Shown: piece after piece, positions 3,864-11,679 of the stretch | Numbering within the stretch: the first letter of the stretch is position 1 | Layout of the letters: each line of letters starts with the position of its first letter | Source of the DNA: Alphaproteobacteria bacterium | GTDB lineage: Bacteria > Pseudomonadota > Alphaproteobacteria > Rs-D84 | Assembly (NCBI GenBank): GCA_017615655.1 | Contig: JAFZZS010000002.1 | Span: 3,114 to 67,113 of the forward strand | Direction of reading: 5' to 3' | Length of the DNA: 64,000 nucleotides | The notes under the pieces: model-generated | Databases searched by the model: none | What the model was told of the DNA's origin: nothing | What the model saw: the letters and a program-made list of their open reading frames with translations, nothing else | Translations under genes and position numbers: made by a program

Positions 3864-4463
3864 ATGTTTAAACGGGTAAATGTGGTACTGTTTGATTTTG
3901 ACGGGACGTTATCTTGGCCCGATTCAAATACGGCATTTTTGCATTATTGTATGCGGCATTCAATAAAGCCTTGGTTGTTTTTGCCGTTAATTGTTTTTTG
4001 TGCATGCGTGGGTATTCTTAGACCCGGGGGAATATGGTGGCGTCAAAATATGCGCAGGTTTATTACTAAAGACATGGTTCGCAAATTTGCACCGGATTTC
4101 ATTAAACAACATATTCGCAACAGATTTGGTTGGGCTGCAGAAAAAGTTGCCGATGAACAGGCGGCGGGGAACAAGGTGTTGCTGATTTCTGCGTCACCAG
4201 ATTATCTTATTCCAAAATTAGTTCATGATATGAAGTTTGACGCGGTTATTTGTTCCAAAATGTATACAAAAAAACCGTGGAAATACAGATTTCTGTGTCG
4301 CGGTTATAATAAAGTATATGCAATGGATGAATGGGCAAAAGAAAATAATTTCATTCCGCATGTCGTACGCGCATATTCAGACAGTAAAACTGATATGCCA
4401 ATGATGGAGATTGCAGAACAGCAAATATGGATAAATCCAAAAACAGGATTGCCTGTATATTAA
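3864..4463 (+). CDS. HAD-superfamily hydrolase (HAD-IB/phosphoserine-phosphatase-like)
   Basis: N-terminal DxDGT motif (LFDFDGTL), Lys and DD-like motifs downstream, 199 aa. Confidence 0.6.
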   Translation: MFKRVNVVLFDFDGTLSWPDSNTAFLHYCMRHSIKPWLFLPLIVFCACVGILRPGGIWWRQNMRRFITKDMVRKFAPDFIKQHIRNRFGWAAEKVADEQAAGNKVLLISASPDYLIPKLVHDMKFDAVICSKMYTKKPWKYRFLCRGYNKVYAMDEWAKENNFIPHVVRAYSDSKTDMPMMEIAEQQIWINPKTGLPVY

Positions 4464-4491
4464 TAAACGTGCTATATAGGCGTGTTTTGTA

Positions 4492-5370
4492 TTATTTATC
4501 AAAATCTAATTCTTTTAATTTCTCGGCACGTGGCGCAATTTTTTCAATTGATGTTTGTATTTGTTCTATATCTGATTGTGCCTGGGTAAAATGTTTTCGT
4601 ACATTGTCAGTGCGTTCTGCAAGTCGTGATAAATCAGCCAGTAACAAATCCAGTTCGCGTTTAATCTGGCCAGCCACGCGTTTAATTTTTATGTCAGATA
4701 ATACAGACCGAATAGTGTTTAATGTCGCCCACAATGTAGATGGGGATACAATAAATACCTTTTTGCGTGCTGCATAATTGATTATTCCGGAAAACTCACG
4801 ATGTAATGTTTCAAATATAGATTCCGATGCAATAAACATCATTGCACTTTCTGCGGTCTTTCCTGGGATAATATATTTTTCAGCAATTGCATCTATGTGT
4901 TTTCTGACATCTAATTCAAATTGTTTGCGGTATAATTCAGGATTTTCATTATTTGTCATACGTGAAAAAGATTCCAGTGGAAATTTGCTGTCTATGATCA
5001 TATCGCCTGGTGGATACGGCAAGCGTATAATACAATCAGGACGAACACCCGTATCCATTACGTGTTGAAATGCATATGTTTCAGGGGGCATGATATCAGC
5101 CACTAAATCTTCCAATTGTCTTTCACCAAATGTTCCACGGGCTTGTTTATTGCCCATAAGTATATTTTTAAAGTTAGCAATATCAGAACTGATATTTTTC
5201 AATTCTGTTGCATTTTGTGCCAGAACCCCAAGTCTCTCGGATAAACGTTCACGCAGGCGTGCATTATCTTCGCGCAAAGCAGATGTATCTATGCCGTTTG
5301 GCCGCATTAGCAGCACACCAAGCATTATGATTATAAGTGCGCTCATTACTATTAAAATATAAGTTGTCAT
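4492..5370 (-). CDS. rmuC: DNA recombination protein RmuC (short form)
   Basis: N-terminal TM helix, coiled-coil region, conserved RmuC C-terminal domain (IMFIASESIFE, VSPSTLWATL). Start set at MTTYIL (ATG at 5368-5370); the upstream extension of the ORF is probably not translated. Confidence 0.7.
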   Translation of the reverse strand: MTTYILIVMSALIIIMLGVLLMRPNGIDTSALREDNARLRERLSERLGVLAQNATELKNISSDIANFKNILMGNKQARGTFGERQLEDLVADIMPPETYAFQHVMDTGVRPDCIIRLPYPPGDMIIDSKFPLESFSRMTNNENPELYRKQFELDVRKHIDAIAEKYIIPGKTAESAMMFIASESIFETLHREFSGIINYAARKKVFIVSPSTLWATLNTIRSVLSDIKIKRVAGQIKRELDLLLADLSRLAERTDNVRKHFTQAQSDIEQIQTSIEKIAPRAEKLKELDFDK

Positions 5371-5413
5371 TTGGATTTCCTTTGCTATCATCTTATTATA
5401 AAAGGATTTATGT

Positions 5414-5914
5414 ATGTTGCAAATGAAACTTTGTGGTGATTTAATATTGCGCGAAAAGTGTTCGCCTGTAGAGGTTATTACGTCTGAAATAAAGAATAAT
5501 ATGGACGAGATGGTAAAAATGATGCGCGAACAAAATGGTGTAGGACTTGCCGCGCCACAGGTTGGTATTACAAAACGGTTTCTTGTCATGATGAATCCTA
5601 AATCTGGTGAAATTTTTAAAATGATAAATCCTGTGATAACTTCGCGTAGTGAAGAGTTGGCGGTTATAGAAGAGGGGTGTTTATCGGTTTTGGGTCCTGA
5701 CAATTTGCCTGTATACGCAAATGTTACTCGTCCTGCGGTTGTGACAATTGAATGGATGGGGGATGATGGCAAGAAATATGCGGCGGAAATGTCTGGTATA
5801 ATGGCGCGTATTGCCCAGCATGAAACGGATCATTTGGATGGAATTTTATTTATTGATTATCTTGCGCCGGTAAAACGTGAAATGGTAATGCGTAAAGTGA
5901 GGCAACATAAATGA
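5414..5914 (+). CDS. def: Peptide deformylase
   Basis: GLAAPQVG, EGCLSV and HETDHLDG motifs; 166 aa. Confidence 0.92.
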   Translation: MLQMKLCGDLILREKCSPVEVITSEIKNNMDEMVKMMREQNGVGLAAPQVGITKRFLVMMNPKSGEIFKMINPVITSRSEELAVIEEGCLSVLGPDNLPVYANVTRPAVVTIEWMGDDGKKYAAEMSGIMARIAQHETDHLDGILFIDYLAPVKREMVMRKVRQHK

Positions 5915-6714
5915 AAGTCATTTTAATGGGAACCCCAGATTTTGTTGTACCTATGTTTGATGCGATTTCCGAAAGTCATGATGTTATCGCGGTATTTACG
6001 CGTGGCCCGAAACCTGTTGGTCGGAAACATGTGATTACAAAATCACCTGTGCACATCTGGGCGGAATCTAAAAATATTCCTGTATACCATAAACCAGGTG
6101 AGTATAATTTTAAACCTGATATGGTATTTGTTGCTGCATATGGTGCCATTTTACATAAAAATGTATTAAATTCTGCACCTTGCATAAATTTGCATCCAAG
6201 TTTATTACCACTTTATCGTGGACCGTCGCCAATTAAAACAGCAATTCTAAATGGTGATACAGAAAGCGGTGTCTGTCTTATGAGAATGACCGAAGAATTG
6301 GATGCGGGTGATATTTTAATGTGTCAGAAGTTTAACATTGAAATTGATGATACAAATGAAGTCATAGAAAAACATGTATCCGAAATCGGTTCAAAAATGA
6401 TTTTAGAATATATGAAGAATCCAAATAAATATCCCCCAATTAAACAAAGTGGAAAAATCGTCTATACGGCTAAAATCGGTGTATACGATGAAATAATAGA
6501 TTGGGAAAAGTCGCCAATTGAAATTCATAATTTGGTGCGTGCACTTGGGGCGGGGCGCACAAAAATAAACGGCATAGATGTAAAAATTCTTAAAACAAAA
6601 ATGAATGGTGATACATTGGAAATTGTAAAAATTCAACCGGCGGGCAAAAAGCCGATGGATTGGAAAAGTTTTGTAAATGGTCTGCGCGGTGCAGAGATAA
6701 AGTATGGTGAATAA
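5911..6714 (+). CDS. fmt: Methionyl-tRNA formyltransferase (compact, 267 aa)
   Basis: Formyl-transferase N-terminal fold (ILMGTPDF, HPSLLPLYRGPSPI). 4-nt overlap with the def stop, the classic def-fmt operon. Confidence 0.85.
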   Translation: MKVILMGTPDFVVPMFDAISESHDVIAVFTRGPKPVGRKHVITKSPVHIWAESKNIPVYHKPGEYNFKPDMVFVAAYGAILHKNVLNSAPCINLHPSLLPLYRGPSPIKTAILNGDTESGVCLMRMTEELDAGDILMCQKFNIEIDDTNEVIEKHVSEIGSKMILEYMKNPNKYPPIKQSGKIVYTAKIGVYDEIIDWEKSPIEIHNLVRALGAGRTKINGIDVKILKTKMNGDTLEIVKIQPAGKKPMDWKSFVNGLRGAEIKYGE

Positions 6715-6717
6715 AAT

Positions 6718-7053
6718 ATGGGCAATGAATTAGAACGAGATGTTTTTTGCTTGTATCGTGGCACGTTTGTTGCGCGGTCTGAATTTAATTCAAATGCACC
6801 CGCTTATCACGAATCCGAACATGGTGATTCGTATATGGCATCGCCGTATGGTGAATGTAAGTGTATATCTTGTTGTGCCACCAATAGATTAAATTGTGTA
6901 AATTGTGATATGCCGAAAATATTGAATGCAGAATTTCGCACAGAAATGTTAAAGAAATTCGATTTGGATGGCAATTATCTTGGTGCTGGTATGCCACAAC
7001 ATAGATGCGATATGTGCATGGCACAATATAAACAAAATGGACATTTAAGATAA
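6718..7053 (+). CDS. Cysteine-rich hypothetical protein (111 aa, 11 Cys)
   Basis: ORF packed between the fmt stop (6714) and truA start (7055) with 3-nt and 1-nt gaps. CxC, CC and CxxC spacing suggests metal binding. No recognisable family. Confidence 0.45.
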   Translation: MGNELERDVFCLYRGTFVARSEFNSNAPAYHESEHGDSYMASPYGECKCISCCATNRLNCVNCDMPKILNAEFRTEMLKKFDLDGNYLGAGMPQHRCDMCMAQYKQNGHLR

Positions 7054-7054
7054 A

Positions 7055-7798
7055 ATGACGCGGTATAAAGTTATTCTTGAATACGATGGAACAGATTTAA
7101 TTGGGTGGCAGGAAAACACCCAGGGTCCGTCAGTACAATCTTTATTAAAAGACGCTATTGAAAAATTTTGTGGTGTACGTCCCGATGTTATTGGGGCGGG
7201 GCGGACTGATGCAGGGGTTCATGCAATCGGTATGGTTGCACACTTTGATTTGAATAAAGAATTTGATGCAAATACAGTTATGCGTGCGGTGAATTTCTAT
7301 TTAAATAATGCGCCCGTATCAGTATTGGATTGTAAAATTGTTGCGGATGATTTCAATGCACGTTTTTCGTGTAAAATGCGGCATTATAAATATATAGTGT
7401 TGAATCGCCCGTCAAAACCAGTATTAGATAAAAATCGTGTTTGGTGGGTACCAAGAAAATTAAATATCAAGAAAATGCGTATGGCGGCAGATAAATTGGT
7501 TGGTAAACATGATTTTACGTCTTTTCGCGCATCAGAATGTCAAGCCAAAAGTCCAATAAAAACTCTTGATTCTTGCTGTATAGAACAAGATGATGATATG
7601 ATAATTTTTGATTTTTTTGCACGTTCTTTCCTGCATCATCAAGTTCGAAATATGGTTGGAACGTTGGTGGAAATTGGCTTGGGCAAGCCGTATGATATTG
7701 ACAAGATTTTTAAGGCCCAAGATCGTTCTGCAGCGGGGGCAACAGCCCCGGCGTCCGGACTGTACTTTATTCGTGCCGATTATGCCAAAAACGATTAG
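7055..7798 (+). CDS. truA: tRNA pseudouridine(38-40) synthase TruA
   Basis: GRTDAGVHA catalytic motif; 247 aa. Confidence 0.9.
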   Translation: MTRYKVILEYDGTDLIGWQENTQGPSVQSLLKDAIEKFCGVRPDVIGAGRTDAGVHAIGMVAHFDLNKEFDANTVMRAVNFYLNNAPVSVLDCKIVADDFNARFSCKMRHYKYIVLNRPSKPVLDKNRVWWVPRKLNIKKMRMAADKLVGKHDFTSFRASECQAKSPIKTLDSCCIEQDDDMIIFDFFARSFLHHQVRNMVGTLVEIGLGKPYDIDKIFKAQDRSAAGATAPASGLYFIRADYAKND

Positions 7799-9701
7799 AA
7801 TTTATTTTTGTAAAATGTCCAGATTTATAAATAATACCACCACCATGAATTATTTTTCTAGCGCATTTTGAATCTGTATTTACGTTAAAATAAGACACAA
7901 TGTATTTAATACCATCATCGTTACACATTGATAAAATGTTTTTACTTAGTGTGGTAAAGTTTTGAATATGTACAATTGACCAATGTGGAAAATTGACTTT
8001 ATATACACCGTATTCTTTGTGCAATTGTAAATTATCGGTACCTTGGGTTTCGCAATTAGATTGTTTCCATGTATCAAAGGCAAAATAATTACTGCTGTCA
8101 TGTGTTTTATTAAAGTGCAATTTTCCATCTATTACGGCACCTATTAGTTTATGATTATTACTTATGTAAAATACAGGCAATGGCGAAAATAAGAATATTA
8201 TAGTTCCAATTGATATTAATGTTCCTCCTAATAAAAGGTTAAAATGTCGTAAAATAGCGTATTTGAATTTATCAGAATTGCGTATGAATATTATACAGCA
8301 AAATCCAAGTGTTATGAATATAATTGGTATATTTGTAATATAACCAACATTCAGATTTGCTAGGGGCAGACTAGTAATATCAGATGCAATTGTAAGCATT
8401 ATATTGTAAACATTGTGTGCCAAGACTAATGGGCCCAGCAGTCCAAAAATAGAAAGTATTGTTCCAATAATAACAAGAGGCATAATAATAAATGAAAATA
8501 CTGGTAAAAATATCAAATTCCCCAAAATTCCGTAAAGTGATAATGTTCCAAAATGCATTATAGCGAATGGGCAAGTAAATAATGTGGCAATCAAAGCGGT
8601 TAGAAAAGCACCATAGATGTATTTTAGAAATTTATTATTTGGCAGTGTGGGATTTACAACAGTCCACAACCATAAAATCCCAAAAATTGCGGCAAAAGAT
8701 AATTGAAACCCCGCTTGCATTACAAAATGCGGATTTATCATTATAAGTATAATAAAAGCGATACTTGCTATGCGTAATGATATAATGTTTCGGCGTAATA
8801 TAAAAGCTAACATAATAAGCGTTGCCATCAGAAATGCGCGTAATGTTGCAACTCCGCATCCAGATAATAATACATATCCAATCAGTCCGCACCATGCACA
8901 AAGTATTGCGGGAATTCGTGCGGGGGTACGCTTTACAAGTTTTGGAAACAACCTAAACAAAAAATAAAATAGAATAAACAACCATCCCATCACAAGTGTT
9001 GTGTGGTACCCACTTATTGACCAAATATGTGACATCCCATTTGTCGCCCATATACCGCGATGACTATCAGGTAAAGTATGTTTATACCCTAGAATTAATG
9101 AATCTGCCAAGAAAGAATTTGCATGTTTTTTTATGGTGTTTCTAATGTTGTATACAGCAGATTTTGTCGTATATATCGTTTTTATATCTTGTATATATCC
9201 TGTGGCAGAAATGTTATCAAAATATGCCCAACGTGCAAAATCAAAACCGTTTGGAATATCTGCAGGTCCAGGTTTAAATAAACCCCCATTTCCAGATATT
9301 ACATCACCAATTTTATAAGATTCATTGGTTGTCGTTGATACGCGAACAGTTCCATACTTTTCTGTATCTAAATATATGCGCATTTTTTCGTTTGCAAAAT
9401 CGACATCTGTTATTTTACCAGTAATTTCAATACCATGAACATCGTGTTCAATGTATTTAACGTTTTTTGTGTGGGTGTAGATTCCTGAATATCCAAACCC
9501 AGTAAAAAAACACGCAAATAAACATAAAATTGGCCACTTTTTGACACCAAAAAACATGGATATCCCCAAAATGAGTGCCAATAGTAAAATCCATAAACTT
9601 GGCTCTGTACCCAATGAAAAATAGAGCCCCATACCAAAAGCAGCAAAAATTGGTGTCCAAAGAAACAGATTTTTATACTGATTATCAAGGAATTCTTTCA
9701 T
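7767..9701 (-). CDS. comEC: ComEC/Rec2-family competence membrane protein (no recognisable C-terminal metallo-beta-lactamase domain)
   Basis: Multi-TM competence domain. Start at MKEFLDNQYKNLFLWTPIFAAF (ATG at 9699-9701). C-terminal ~150 aa lack the HxHxDH MBL signature. Convergent 32-nt overlap with the truA 3' end. Confidence 0.7.
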   Translation of the reverse strand: MKEFLDNQYKNLFLWTPIFAAFGMGLYFSLGTEPSLWILLLALILGISMFFGVKKWPILCLFACFFTGFGYSGIYTHTKNVKYIEHDVHGIEITGKITDVDFANEKMRIYLDTEKYGTVRVSTTTNESYKIGDVISGNGGLFKPGPADIPNGFDFARWAYFDNISATGYIQDIKTIYTTKSAVYNIRNTIKKHANSFLADSLILGYKHTLPDSHRGIWATNGMSHIWSISGYHTTLVMGWLFILFYFLFRLFPKLVKRTPARIPAILCAWCGLIGYVLLSGCGVATLRAFLMATLIMLAFILRRNIISLRIASIAFIILIMINPHFVMQAGFQLSFAAIFGILWLWTVVNPTLPNNKFLKYIYGAFLTALIATLFTCPFAIMHFGTLSLYGILGNLIFLPVFSFIIMPLVIIGTILSIFGLLGPLVLAHNVYNIMLTIASDITSLPLANLNVGYITNIPIIFITLGFCCIIFIRNSDKFKYAILRHFNLLLGGTLISIGTIIFLFSPLPVFYISNNHKLIGAVIDGKLHFNKTHDSSNYFAFDTWKQSNCETQGTDNLQLHKEYGVYKVNFPHWSIVHIQNFTTLSKNILSMCNDDGIKYIVSYFNVNTDSKCARKIIHGGGIIYKSGHFTKINSNRFWHNRHE

Positions 9702-9780
9702 AACGGTGATTATAATTTTATTTTGTTGATTGGCAACAAGGATTTTCTTTATAATATTTACACATAAGGAGAAAAAACTT

Positions 9781-11349
9781 ATGTCGAAATATATTTTTGT
9801 TACAGGTGGTGTTGTTTCAAGTTTAGGCAAGGGCGTTTCCGCGGCATCGTTGGGCGCCCTTCTTCAATCCCGTGGGTACAGTGTGCATGTACGTAAATTT
9901 GACCCATATTTAAATGTAGATCCAGGAACTATGTCGCCACTACAGCATGGTGAAGTCTATGTTACAAATGATGGATTTGAAACGGATTTAGATTTGGGCT
10001 ATTATGAGCGATTTTTAGGAATAAAGTTAAGCAAGCACGATTCGGTTTCTGGGGGGCGTATCTATTGGGATGTATTAAATGCGGAACGTCGCGGTGATTA
10101 CCTTGGGGCGACTGTTCAAATGATTCCGCATGTTACCAACAAAATTAAAGAATACATTGCAGAACCCACAAATACAGATTTTGTTATTTGTGAAATAGGT
10201 GGAACAGTTGGGGATATAGAAGGAAAAGTCTTTTTGGAATCTATACGTCAGTTTGCAAATGATGTCGGACGTAGAAATGTGATGTTTGCGCACTTAACTT
10301 TGGCTCCTTATTTGGAACAAAGTGGCGAGTTAAAAACCAAACCTACGCAAATGTCTGTGCGTAGATTACTAGAAAATGGTATTCAGGCAGATATTTTATT
10401 TGTTCGTTCACCAAGGATGCTTACATCAGATGAAAAAGCGAAAATAGGTATGTTCTGTAACTTGCCGGCAAAGAATGTTATTACCAGTTTAGATGTTGAT
10501 AATATCTATAAAGTGCCATTAGTTTACAATTCGCAGGATGTATTCAACATAATGGCTGGACATTTCGGATTGCCTGATGCCGCAGGTGATATGTCAAAAA
10601 TAAAAAAAATAGAACATCATCTAAATGCAGATCTACCAGTTTGCACAATCGGTATTGTTGGCAAGTATTTTGATGTAGCAGATGCGTATAAATCTTTGAA
10701 CGAGGCGCTCTTTCATGCAAGTATTCAAAATCATGTGCGTCTAAAAATAAAAAAGATAGATGCGGAAAATTTCAAACCAGAAGATTGTAGCGATATTGAT
10801 GGTATATTGGTTCCTGGGGGCTTTGGTTCGCGTGGTGTCGAGGGGAAAATTGCAGCGGCAAGGTATGCCCGTGAAAATAATATTCCTTTTATGGGAATTT
10901 GTCTTGGAATGCAGGTCGCTGTAATAGATTTTATGCGAAATGTTGTCGGTGAACAGAATGCGAATTCAACCGAATTTTCAAAAAATTGTACGCCTGTTAT
11001 CGATATAATGCACGATTGTGATAAAGAAAATATGGGCGGAACATTACGTCTTGGGGCCTATCCTTGTGTTATCAAACCTGGGACACTTGCAGAAAGGGTT
11101 TATGGTTCAAACAATATTTCTGAACGGCATCGTCATAGGTACGAAGTCAATATTAAATACAAAGATGCTCTTGAGAAAAATGGTATGGTAATTTCAGGCA
11201 TGTCGCCTGATGGGAAATTACCTGAAATGATAGAAATTCCGACGCATAAATTTTTTATTGCTGGTCAATTTCACCCAGAATTTCAAAGTAACCCATTTAC
11301 TGGGCACCCGTTATTTAATGCTTTTATAGCCGCTGCAAAAGACAAGTAA
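9781..11349 (+). CDS. pyrG: CTP synthase
   Basis: MSKYIFVTGGVVSSLGKG N-terminus, glutamine amidotransferase domain (GICLGMQ, HRHRYE). Start set at the internal Met 9781. Confidence 0.93.
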   Translation: MSKYIFVTGGVVSSLGKGVSAASLGALLQSRGYSVHVRKFDPYLNVDPGTMSPLQHGEVYVTNDGFETDLDLGYYERFLGIKLSKHDSVSGGRIYWDVLNAERRGDYLGATVQMIPHVTNKIKEYIAEPTNTDFVICEIGGTVGDIEGKVFLESIRQFANDVGRRNVMFAHLTLAPYLEQSGELKTKPTQMSVRRLLENGIQADILFVRSPRMLTSDEKAKIGMFCNLPAKNVITSLDVDNIYKVPLVYNSQDVFNIMAGHFGLPDAAGDMSKIKKIEHHLNADLPVCTIGIVGKYFDVADAYKSLNEALFHASIQNHVRLKIKKIDAENFKPEDCSDIDGILVPGGFGSRGVEGKIAAARYARENNIPFMGICLGMQVAVIDFMRNVVGEQNANSTEFSKNCTPVIDIMHDCDKENMGGTLRLGAYPCVIKPGTLAERVYGSNNISERHRHRYEVNIKYKDALEKNGMVISGMSPDGKLPEMIEIPTHKFFIAGQFHPEFQSNPFTGHPLFNAFIAAAKDK

Positions 11350-11679
11350 TTATTTGCCAAAAATAAAATCTGGATTTGATGATATTGCTATGATTGTATC
11401 AATATCATCGTTTTCAGATGTGTGTTGCCGAATCGTTTTTCCGCATTTTTCACACTTGTGCGTGATAATATAACCATCTTTGGATGGAGTTACGGAAATT
11501 GGTTTCATCATACCACCACATGTTGCTTTTCGATCACCTGGGGTTTCATCTACGTGACGGGACCACAAGCATTTTGGGCAATGATTTGTATAACCATTAC
11601 CCAAAACAGATGTCCCGCAATTCTCACAAATAAAATTCTCAATGCGTTTTATAAATTTTTTCATACTATCACAGACCAA
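11350..11679 (-). CDS. RNHCP-domain zinc-ribbon protein
   Basis: CENCG...NHCPKC...C..C pattern typical of RNHCP domain; 109 aa. Overlaps the upstream gapR-like gene by 11 nt. Confidence 0.6.
   Translation of the reverse strand: MVCDSMKKFIKRIENFICENCGTSVLGNGYTNHCPKCLWSRHVDETPGDRKATCGGMMKPISVTPSKDGYIITHKCEKCGKTIRQHTSENDDIDTIIAISSNPDFIFGK

Follow-up and report, generated by a model that had tools for sequence, protein, structure and literature searches.

A Probable Accessory Gene for a Putative Zinc Microprotein in the Variable Slot between fmt and truA of Enterousia-like Alphaproteobacteria

The described proteins that come closest to the one considered here are the C(P)XCG zinc-finger micro-proteins of Haloferax volcanii, among them HVO_2753 and HVO_0758 (PMC11241148, PMC10716476). 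Like the 111-aa product of the gene that lies between fmt and truA in our window (i.e., the whole stretch of 64,000 nucleotides that was analysed), these proteins are small, cytoplasmic and single-domain, carry paired Cys knuckles, and have many lineage-specific paralogues; as a rule they bind or regulate and do not catalyse. The window protein, however, is bacterial, is unrelated to them in sequence, belongs to one chromosomal slot, and is built on a CxCxxC/CxxC/CxxC arrangement. It does not fall within the C(P)XCG class: in addition to its length of 111 aa, its knuckles (CISCC, CVNCD and CDMCM) have no Gly after the second Cys. A second likeness is to domains that bind two zinc ions, such as the FYVE/RING cross-brace and the double zinc ribbon (PF12773), in which eight ligands are likewise arranged as successive knuckles within some 60–70 residues. 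The echoes to these domains are faint and non-significant (E = 5 for FYVE, E = 2.9 for the double zinc ribbon), and the window protein differs from them in having no significant profile or fold match and in possessing an extra N-terminal SE[FY]N hairpin.

Trm112/YcaR (PF03966) is also small and of the Cys4 type, and offers a comparable setting beside a tRNA-modifying enzyme. But Trm112 acts with RNA-modification enzymes (tRNA and rRNA methyltransferases) as a fixed partner, whereas the gene that we describe, hereafter the cassette, is dispensable in close relatives; the family to which it belongs, type A, gives no match to Trm112, and one paralogue of type C gives an echo at E = 8.3. At the level of the locus, integrons and arrays of orphan immunity genes resemble the slot in that short, promoterless and unrelated ORFs stand in the same orientation behind an upstream promoter, and in that their content also differs between close relatives. 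In contrast to integrons, the slot has no integrase, either in place or among its neighbours HAD, rmuC, def, fmt, truA, comEC and pyrG; the intergenic spacers are only 0–32 nt, too short to accommodate attC sites, and slot junctions carry remnants of the fmt 3′ and truA 5′ ends, which indicates homologous or illegitimate recombination. By analogy, we would file the cassette as a member of an orphan family of putative zinc microproteins in an unusual, integrase-free hotspot, closest in mode to the small zinc-finger micro-proteins and to the two-zinc, eight-ligand domains.

Because the gene is short and has no family annotation, it might be taken for a spurious ORF in a non-coding spacer, an option that the original prediction had left standing. 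Several properties of the sequence contradict this. When 5.8 billion proteins were searched by word index, six homologues were recovered, all exactly 111 aa in length and 61–100% identical, one of which is an NCBI "hypothetical protein" of an Alphaproteobacteria MAG. Two profile searches, of which the exhaustive one covered 1.84 billion representatives, brought type A to about 24 members of 93–130 aa that share 34–85% identity, i.e., the six close homologues and about 18 more distant ones, full length throughout. Within the A111 group, dN/dS was 0.14–0.25 in nine of ten pairs and 0.46 in the other, and later pairs that we examined gave 0.22–0.31. In a DNA alignment of seven sequences, 37, 42 and 70% of sites were variable at codon positions 1, 2 and 3, and the GC contents at these positions in the cassette (0.44, 0.40 and 0.29) match those of the neighbouring genes. 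The hyper-conserved 3′ half of the cassette showed neither an Rfam family nor an unusual RNA fold (z = −0.38). A minus-strand ORF at 6785–7024 was rejected as an alternative since the variation tracks codon positions in the plus frame. By these evolutionary measures 6718–7053 is a real gene under purifying selection; together with a usable translation signal, the full-length conservation, the selection and the excess of third-position variation refute the spurious-ORF reading.

The positions of the gene and its spacing within the operon, as originally reported, agree with the sequence (Table 1). Its ATG at 6718 stands 3 nt past the fmt stop (6712–6714), and a single nucleotide separates its TAA (7051–7053) from the ATG of truA at 7055; upstream, the 3′ end of def overlaps the start of fmt by 4 nt. 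When paired with a generic 16S 3′ tail, i.e., a generic anti-Shine-Dalgarno sequence, the Shine-Dalgarno-like element of the cassette forms a duplex of −5.8 kcal/mol, against −5.4 kcal/mol for the element of def and −2.45 kcal/mol for the background on average. A GG(T/G/A)GA motif also precedes truA in relatives whose slot is empty. Because the element belonging to truA in the window is weak (−3.0 kcal/mol), its translation is probably coupled to that of the cassette by termination and reinitiation at the TAA-A-ATG junction. A scan of 4400–8200 for promoters and terminators found no excess over shuffled sequences, and none between fmt, the cassette and truA. The arrangement points to expression of the cassette by translational coupling, in which it would borrow the operon that surrounds it: a Shine-Dalgarno element in the last codons of the preceding gene, short spacers, and a stop-restart into truA.

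Table 1. Positions of the cassette, its operon neighbours, signals and protein motifs, and of other families found in the slot (window positions unless a locus is named).
Feature	Position	Strand	Evidence or remark
def (peptide deformylase)	5414-5914	+	operon gene 1; Pfam PF01327 Pep_deformylase, E 4.5e-42
fmt (methionyl-tRNA formyltransferase, 267 aa)	5911-6714	+	Formyl_trans_N PF00551, E 3.5e-30; upstream border of hotspot
GGTGA Shine-Dalgarno-like element	6706-6710	+	within last fmt codons, 7 nt 5′ of cassette ATG
Type-A Cys8 microprotein gene (111 aa)	6718-7053	+	ORF, homologues, dN/dS, codon-position variability, AF2
N-terminal beta-hairpin region, C...V.SE[FY]N motif	6748-6789	+	invariant C11, V18, S21, E22, N24
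Central Cys cluster, C47-x-C49-xx-C52...C60-xx-C63	6856-6906	+	invariant in 23 sequences; equivalent Cys invariant in type B
C-terminal C97-xx-C100 knuckle, in R-C-x-x-C-M-A-Q-Y-K	7006-7017	+	invariant; aligned by hhalign to type-B CxxC
High-identity tract relative to L010	6858-7062	+	sliding-window DNA identity 92-100%, flanks about 70-82%
Stop-restart junction TAA-A-ATG, cassette/truA	7051-7057	+	sequence
truA (tRNA pseudouridine synthase A)	7055-7798	+	PseudoU_synth_1 PF01416, E 1.1e-34; downstream border of hotspot
Family D loci	L031:801-995, L035:3812-4045, L045:3811-4008, L085:481-678, L058:3813-4428, L086:144-500
E-type loci	L044:1302-1972, L043:1933-2328, L062:4094-4378

The flanks of the operon yielded some observations on gene structure. 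A convergent comEC-like gene (7767–9830, minus strand) shares its last portion of about 32 nt (7767–7798) with the 3′ end of truA; the overlap is called likewise in L001, L020 and L089, and in relatives the gene has DUF4131 and Competence domains. On the other side, the mechanical list of ORFs holds an rmuC at 4492–5772 (minus strand) of 426 aa that begins with TTG and would overlap def; relatives and Pfam favour a 292-aa RmuC starting near 5370. Just 3′ of pyrG, at 11350–11679 on the minus strand, lies a gene for a 109-aa RNHCP-domain protein with 8 Cys (PF12647, E 5.6e-29), which shows zinc-ribbon echoes, is unrelated to the cassette, and has homologues in L020 and L089 that likewise lie close to this neighbourhood.

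The cassette protein contains nine Cys (11, 47, 49, 52, 53, 60, 63, 97 and 100) and not the 11 that had been claimed for it, although the motifs picked out at the time, CKC (47–49), CC (52–53), CxxC (49–52 and 60–63) and CDMC (97–100), are all present. Eight of the nine (C11, C47, C49, C52, C60, C63, C97 and C100) are invariant in an alignment of 23 type-A sequences, some of which share no more than 34% identity with the window protein; C53, the ninth, is not conserved. V18, S21, E22, N24, H31, Y104, L110 and R111 are likewise invariant. The signature of type A can be written as C-x(n)-CxCxxC-x7-CxxC-x(n)-CxxC following an N-terminal "V.SE[FY]N" hairpin, with the spacing between CxCxxC and CxxC given as x(6-8) across the superfamily described below.

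The N-terminus does not resemble a signal peptide and, judged from its sequence, the protein is cytoplasmic. Its invariant Cys form the four-ligand knuckle sets expected of a generic structural zinc-binding domain. Because a cytoplasmic protein with eight invariant thiols is most simply read in this way, we infer two structural Cys4 metal sites, most likely for zinc; among the zinc-finger micro-proteins predicted in Haloferax, however, there are several that fail to bind this metal (PMC11241148). An iron-binding redox protein, either rubredoxin-like with Fe(Cys)4 or a carrier of Fe-S clusters, would likewise suit an anaerobic fermenter and account for the eight invariant Cys, and there is a weak, non-significant likeness to the Fe/Zn-ribbon of Ta0289 (E 1.2). 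However, the motifs of rubredoxins and ferredoxins (CxxCG/CPxCG and CxxCxxCxxxCP) and any Pfam match to them are absent, and the operon holds no gene for a redox partner, all of which renders this possibility very unlikely.

Structure prediction with AF2 depended on the depth of the alignment. Given 22 sequences, one model out of five was confident, at pLDDT 83.5 and pTM 0.67, the other four ranging from 57 to 64 in pLDDT, whereas an alignment of six sequences gave pLDDT 34. The best model consists of two beta-hairpins and three helices, with strands at residues 9–11 and 16–18 in the N-terminal hairpin, and on this model we infer a compact fold of beta-hairpins and helices around the putative metal sites. 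With a match defined as a Foldseek E of at most 0.001 or a TM above 0.5, the model had no analogue in the PDB (best E 1.6, TMq 0.19) or in BFVD (best E 0.82, TMq 0.18), TM values staying below 0.25. Sequence-profile searches of the PDB with the alignments of types A and B and of family D (see below) returned nothing significant; the best echoes, all non-significant, were the zinc ribbon of Ta0289 (E 1.2), TFIIIC (E 3) and FYVE (E 5). That the protein has no recognisable family was borne out: Pfam and NCBIfam gave no match even at permissive thresholds, and in Pfam-A, NCBIfam, PHROGs and PADLOC the number of families hit was zero at E values up to 1–10. Its paralogues produced only non-significant echoes in Pfam, NCBIfam, PHROGs and PADLOC.

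Tracing of the type-A homologues to their contigs brought to light other small ORFs, also rich in Cys, in their immediate vicinity. Those of type B (59–83 aa) follow the pattern C...VV.SEYN.NG.C.C..C...C..C...C..C and have their own eight invariant Cys in 17 sequences; type C proteins are 59–75 aa long. Alignment of A with B by hhalign yielded a probability of 97.8% (E 8e-13), with type A consisting of a B-type core of about 65 aa plus two insertions (residues 25–44 and 81–95), and the motif of the N-terminal hairpin is common to both. The HMMs of A, B and C match one another, and the window protein, which has the Cys8 signature and the location of the family, matches the A profile at 1e-49 and the B profile at 1e-6. 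On these profile relationships, A, B and C are a previously undescribed superfamily, here defined as "Enterousia Cys8", and we found no account of the family in the literature. The distribution of Cys within type C suggests that the N-terminal and middle Cys may belong to one metal site: members with a single middle Cys (L011, L055, L067 and L060) have two N-terminal Cys each, and the only member with one N-terminal Cys (L080) retains the middle CxxC. In terms of the window protein, we propose that one site would combine the N-terminal Cys with C60, C63 and one of C47, C49 and C52, and that the other would combine the remaining two of these three with C97 and C100.

The metallothioneins SmtA and BmtA are likewise Cys-rich and contain CxC and CxxC motifs, and loci of metallothioneins typically vary in the number of tandem copies. 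As a Cys-rich and presumably cytoplasmic protein with both motifs, encoded in a hotspot whose arrays vary in copy number, the cassette might therefore be proposed to serve as a metal buffer or store, its copies following metal exposure. Yet its Cys density is much lower than that of SmtA and BmtA, at 8% for type A (9 of 111 residues in the window protein) and 11–12% for types B and C, and the protein contains 11 aromatic residues (Phe and Tyr), where proteins of the SmtA/BmtA type have almost none, many invariant residues other than Cys in a conserved, fold-like pattern, and predicted regular secondary structure. Together with the absence of a match to the Pfam metallothionein family Metallothio_Pro, these features make a storage role quite unlikely.

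The superfamily is both rare and phylogenetically confined. About 24 type-A and 13 type-B clusters are present in the database of 5.8 billion proteins, ten matches at E ≤ 0.001 were found among the 1.84 billion representatives, and the sole match among 185,579 reference genomes was a Ca. Enterousia sp. MAG. Types A, B and C were found only in Ca. Enterousia-like Alphaproteobacteria of the order Rs-D84; to judge from the sample names, the loci of the homologues appear to come from ruminant and chicken gut metagenomes. Enterousia and other Rs-D84 are gut bacteria whose genomes, of less than 1 Mb, encode neither respiration nor most of biosynthesis, and they are thought to rely on the cells of partners (PMC12306168).

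All members of A, B and C that could be placed on contigs sit in the fmt-truA interval of a conserved neighbourhood, HAD-rmuC-def-fmt-[slot]-truA-comEC-pyrG, and the 64-kb window contains no second copy of the family. To avoid selecting for the cassette, we surveyed metagenome contigs with the window Fmt alone as query, which recovered 66 loci with Fmt 30–93% identical (all but one at least 54%); many contigs are short, and the counts rest on 52 non-redundant complete junctions. The slot is occupied in 41 of the 52 by one to four small Cys-rich genes each, drawn overall from at least two unrelated families, and type A accounts for only six junctions. The remaining 11 are empty, with fmt and truA abutting, and nine of these carry TAATG, in which the stop of fmt runs into the start of truA. 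The original prediction had treated direct adjacency of fmt and truA in relatives as evidence against the gene: such adjacency does occur in these 11, but the gene itself is real. As to whether relatives have a gene in this position, most do, though seldom one of type A, and the remainder have none.

Empty slots occur both in the closest relatives of the window (Fmt 81–88% identical) and in distant ones. In a simple neighbour-joining tree of two proteins, Fmt and TruA, the states EMPTY, A111, A102, D and A-B are interleaved inside the clade of the window. This pattern bears directly on the idea, put forward when the gene was first noticed, that its product is a metal or redox partner of the formylation and deformylation module, which might take the form of a metallochaperone that supplies or shields the labile metal of deformylase, or of a Trm112-style zinc-ribbon subunit of Fmt or TruA. 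Deformylase is a metalloenzyme, the traced members of the superfamily are all tightly coupled within the def-fmt-truA operon, and the Fmt of this lineage has a shortened C-terminal domain, to which Formyl_trans_C (PF02911) matched over profile positions 3–47 of 100 only. But 11 of the 52 relatives, including those with Fmt 81–88% identical and of the same 267 aa, have no gene in the slot; elsewhere unrelated families occupy it, the type of cassette departs from the fmt+truA tree, and there is no resemblance to Trm112 or to chaperone families. Since the slot is emptied and refilled among relatives without following this tree, the gene can be dispensed with or replaced, in contrast to the conserved Def, Fmt and TruA; this combination of fast turnover and conserved neighbours argues against a dedicated Def/Fmt partner, which we regard as unlikely, even if the strict confinement to the slot might yet reflect some functional tie to Fmt or TruA. 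The possibility that the cassette compensates for the short C-terminal domain of Fmt was rejected, because the 267-aa form is common to relatives with and without cassettes. On balance we favour, with moderate confidence, the interpretation that the gene is an accessory, exchangeable occupant of a gene-turnover hotspot between fmt and truA and not a fixed partner in formylation.

Comparisons of individual loci carry signs of such exchange. Between the window and L010, a locus of a Ca. Enterousia MAG, dS is 0.32 for the cassette and 1.2–2.1 for def, fmt and truA, although the low value for the cassette may stem in part from the AT-biased two-fold codons of a protein rich in Cys, Asn and Tyr. 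The tract of high identity between these two loci (Table 1), with 92–100% over 6858–7060, is a probable product of recent recombination; an embedded RNA as the cause of the identity was ruled out, there being no Rfam or RNA-fold signal. The window and L025 show the reverse pattern, with flanks 81–90% identical and cassettes only 40% identical.

In L010, the 32-nt spacer between the A and B genes (L010:6337–6368) consists of AATGACGCG and then AAAATATGGAGAATAAAAT. Of these, the former repeats exactly the cassette-truA junction of the window (7051–7062), initial truA codons included, and the latter reproduces almost unchanged the 3′ end of fmt together with its stop (cf. window 6697–6717). Spacers resembling the end of fmt are present also in L033 and L049. 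The remnants in L010 fit an origin of arrays from the illegitimate joining of fmt-X-truA alleles. Under the mechanism that we propose, cassettes would be gained, lost and swapped when the housekeeping genes on either side recombine homologously, and arrays would grow by illegitimate joining of fmt-3′/truA-5′ junctions.

Not all of the genes in the slot are related. Family D (60–80 aa), the commonest single occupant, has four invariant Cys in the pattern CxxC...C...G.x.V...C..F, and L086 codes for a tandem double-D protein. Alignment of D with B by hhalign gave a probability of 1.2%, and a single superfamily for all hotspot genes was rejected on this basis. Larger Cys-rich hotspot proteins of an "E" type (94–131 aa; CxxC...CxC...GxC...NPIK) have no Pfam match; longer Cys-rich proteins of "x/E" types are found as well, and the HMM-based classing of some ORFs (the "x" types) is approximate. 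Across these unrelated families, 84 of 93 distinct hotspot proteins (L001–L091) end in Arg or Lys, 61 of them in Arg (examples are encoded at L048:2889–3760, L017:1079–1885 and L055:3807–4666), compared to only 13 of 47 long ORFs of the window. The terminal Arg or Lys could be a requirement at the protein level, or a by-product of purine-rich last codons that serve the next gene as a Shine-Dalgarno or termination context.

What the cassette does within this hotspot can be approached from its size and pattern of conservation. The protein is too small for, and has no catalytic motif of, an enzyme, and its loops vary while its ligands do not, which together point to a binding module. Our best guess is that this module would be stabilised by zinc and would act on a partner, either protein or RNA, as its adaptor or inhibitor, in an interaction that changes fast and is specific to the lineage. 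A more specific version would have the cassettes at an interface of conflict, as swappable inhibitors, decoys or immunity factors directed against phage, the toxins of competitors or a partner organism, and turning over in an arms race. The behaviour of the hotspot (presence or absence in close relatives, zero to four copies, allele replacement, and signs of horizontal exchange), the sharing of one slot by two unrelated families, and the inferred dependence of the host lineage on partner cells (PMC12306168) are what such a process might produce. But no homologue, and no sign of an anti-phage or phage origin, was found in PADLOC, PHROGs, GenBank phages (by tblastn) or IMG/VR; genes for toxins, integrases and defence are absent nearby; and dN/dS is below 1, with positive selection not seen. 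We consider the conflict version doubtful, but it is compatible with the binding-module explanation and does not compete with it.

With genomes of less than 1 Mb and most biosynthesis lost (PMC12306168), Rs-D84/Enterousia nevertheless retain up to four tiny Cys-rich genes within an essential translation operon and trade them actively. In practical terms, the fmt-truA locus is a compact marker of strain-level variation and a likely handle on the interaction targets of these uncultured bacteria. The "hypothetical protein" of the annotation is real, and many similar ORFs of 60–130 aa in relatives deserve gene calls. The Cys8 family is rare, and no relative of it could be detected in Pfam, in the PDB or among the viral structures, such that analysis of its structure and metal content would define a new small-protein fold. 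A bolder proposal, which we advance only tentatively and consider rather improbable, is that the fmt-truA position of Rs-D84/Enterousia is a dedicated, integrase-free exchange site, at which unrelated zinc microproteins are shuffled and coupled to essential translation genes so as to modulate either conflict and partner interactions or the biology of initiator tRNA and tRNA modification. If this were true, the locus would represent, in gut bacteria that depend obligately on partners, both a new kind of accessory-gene hotspot and a new family of folds.
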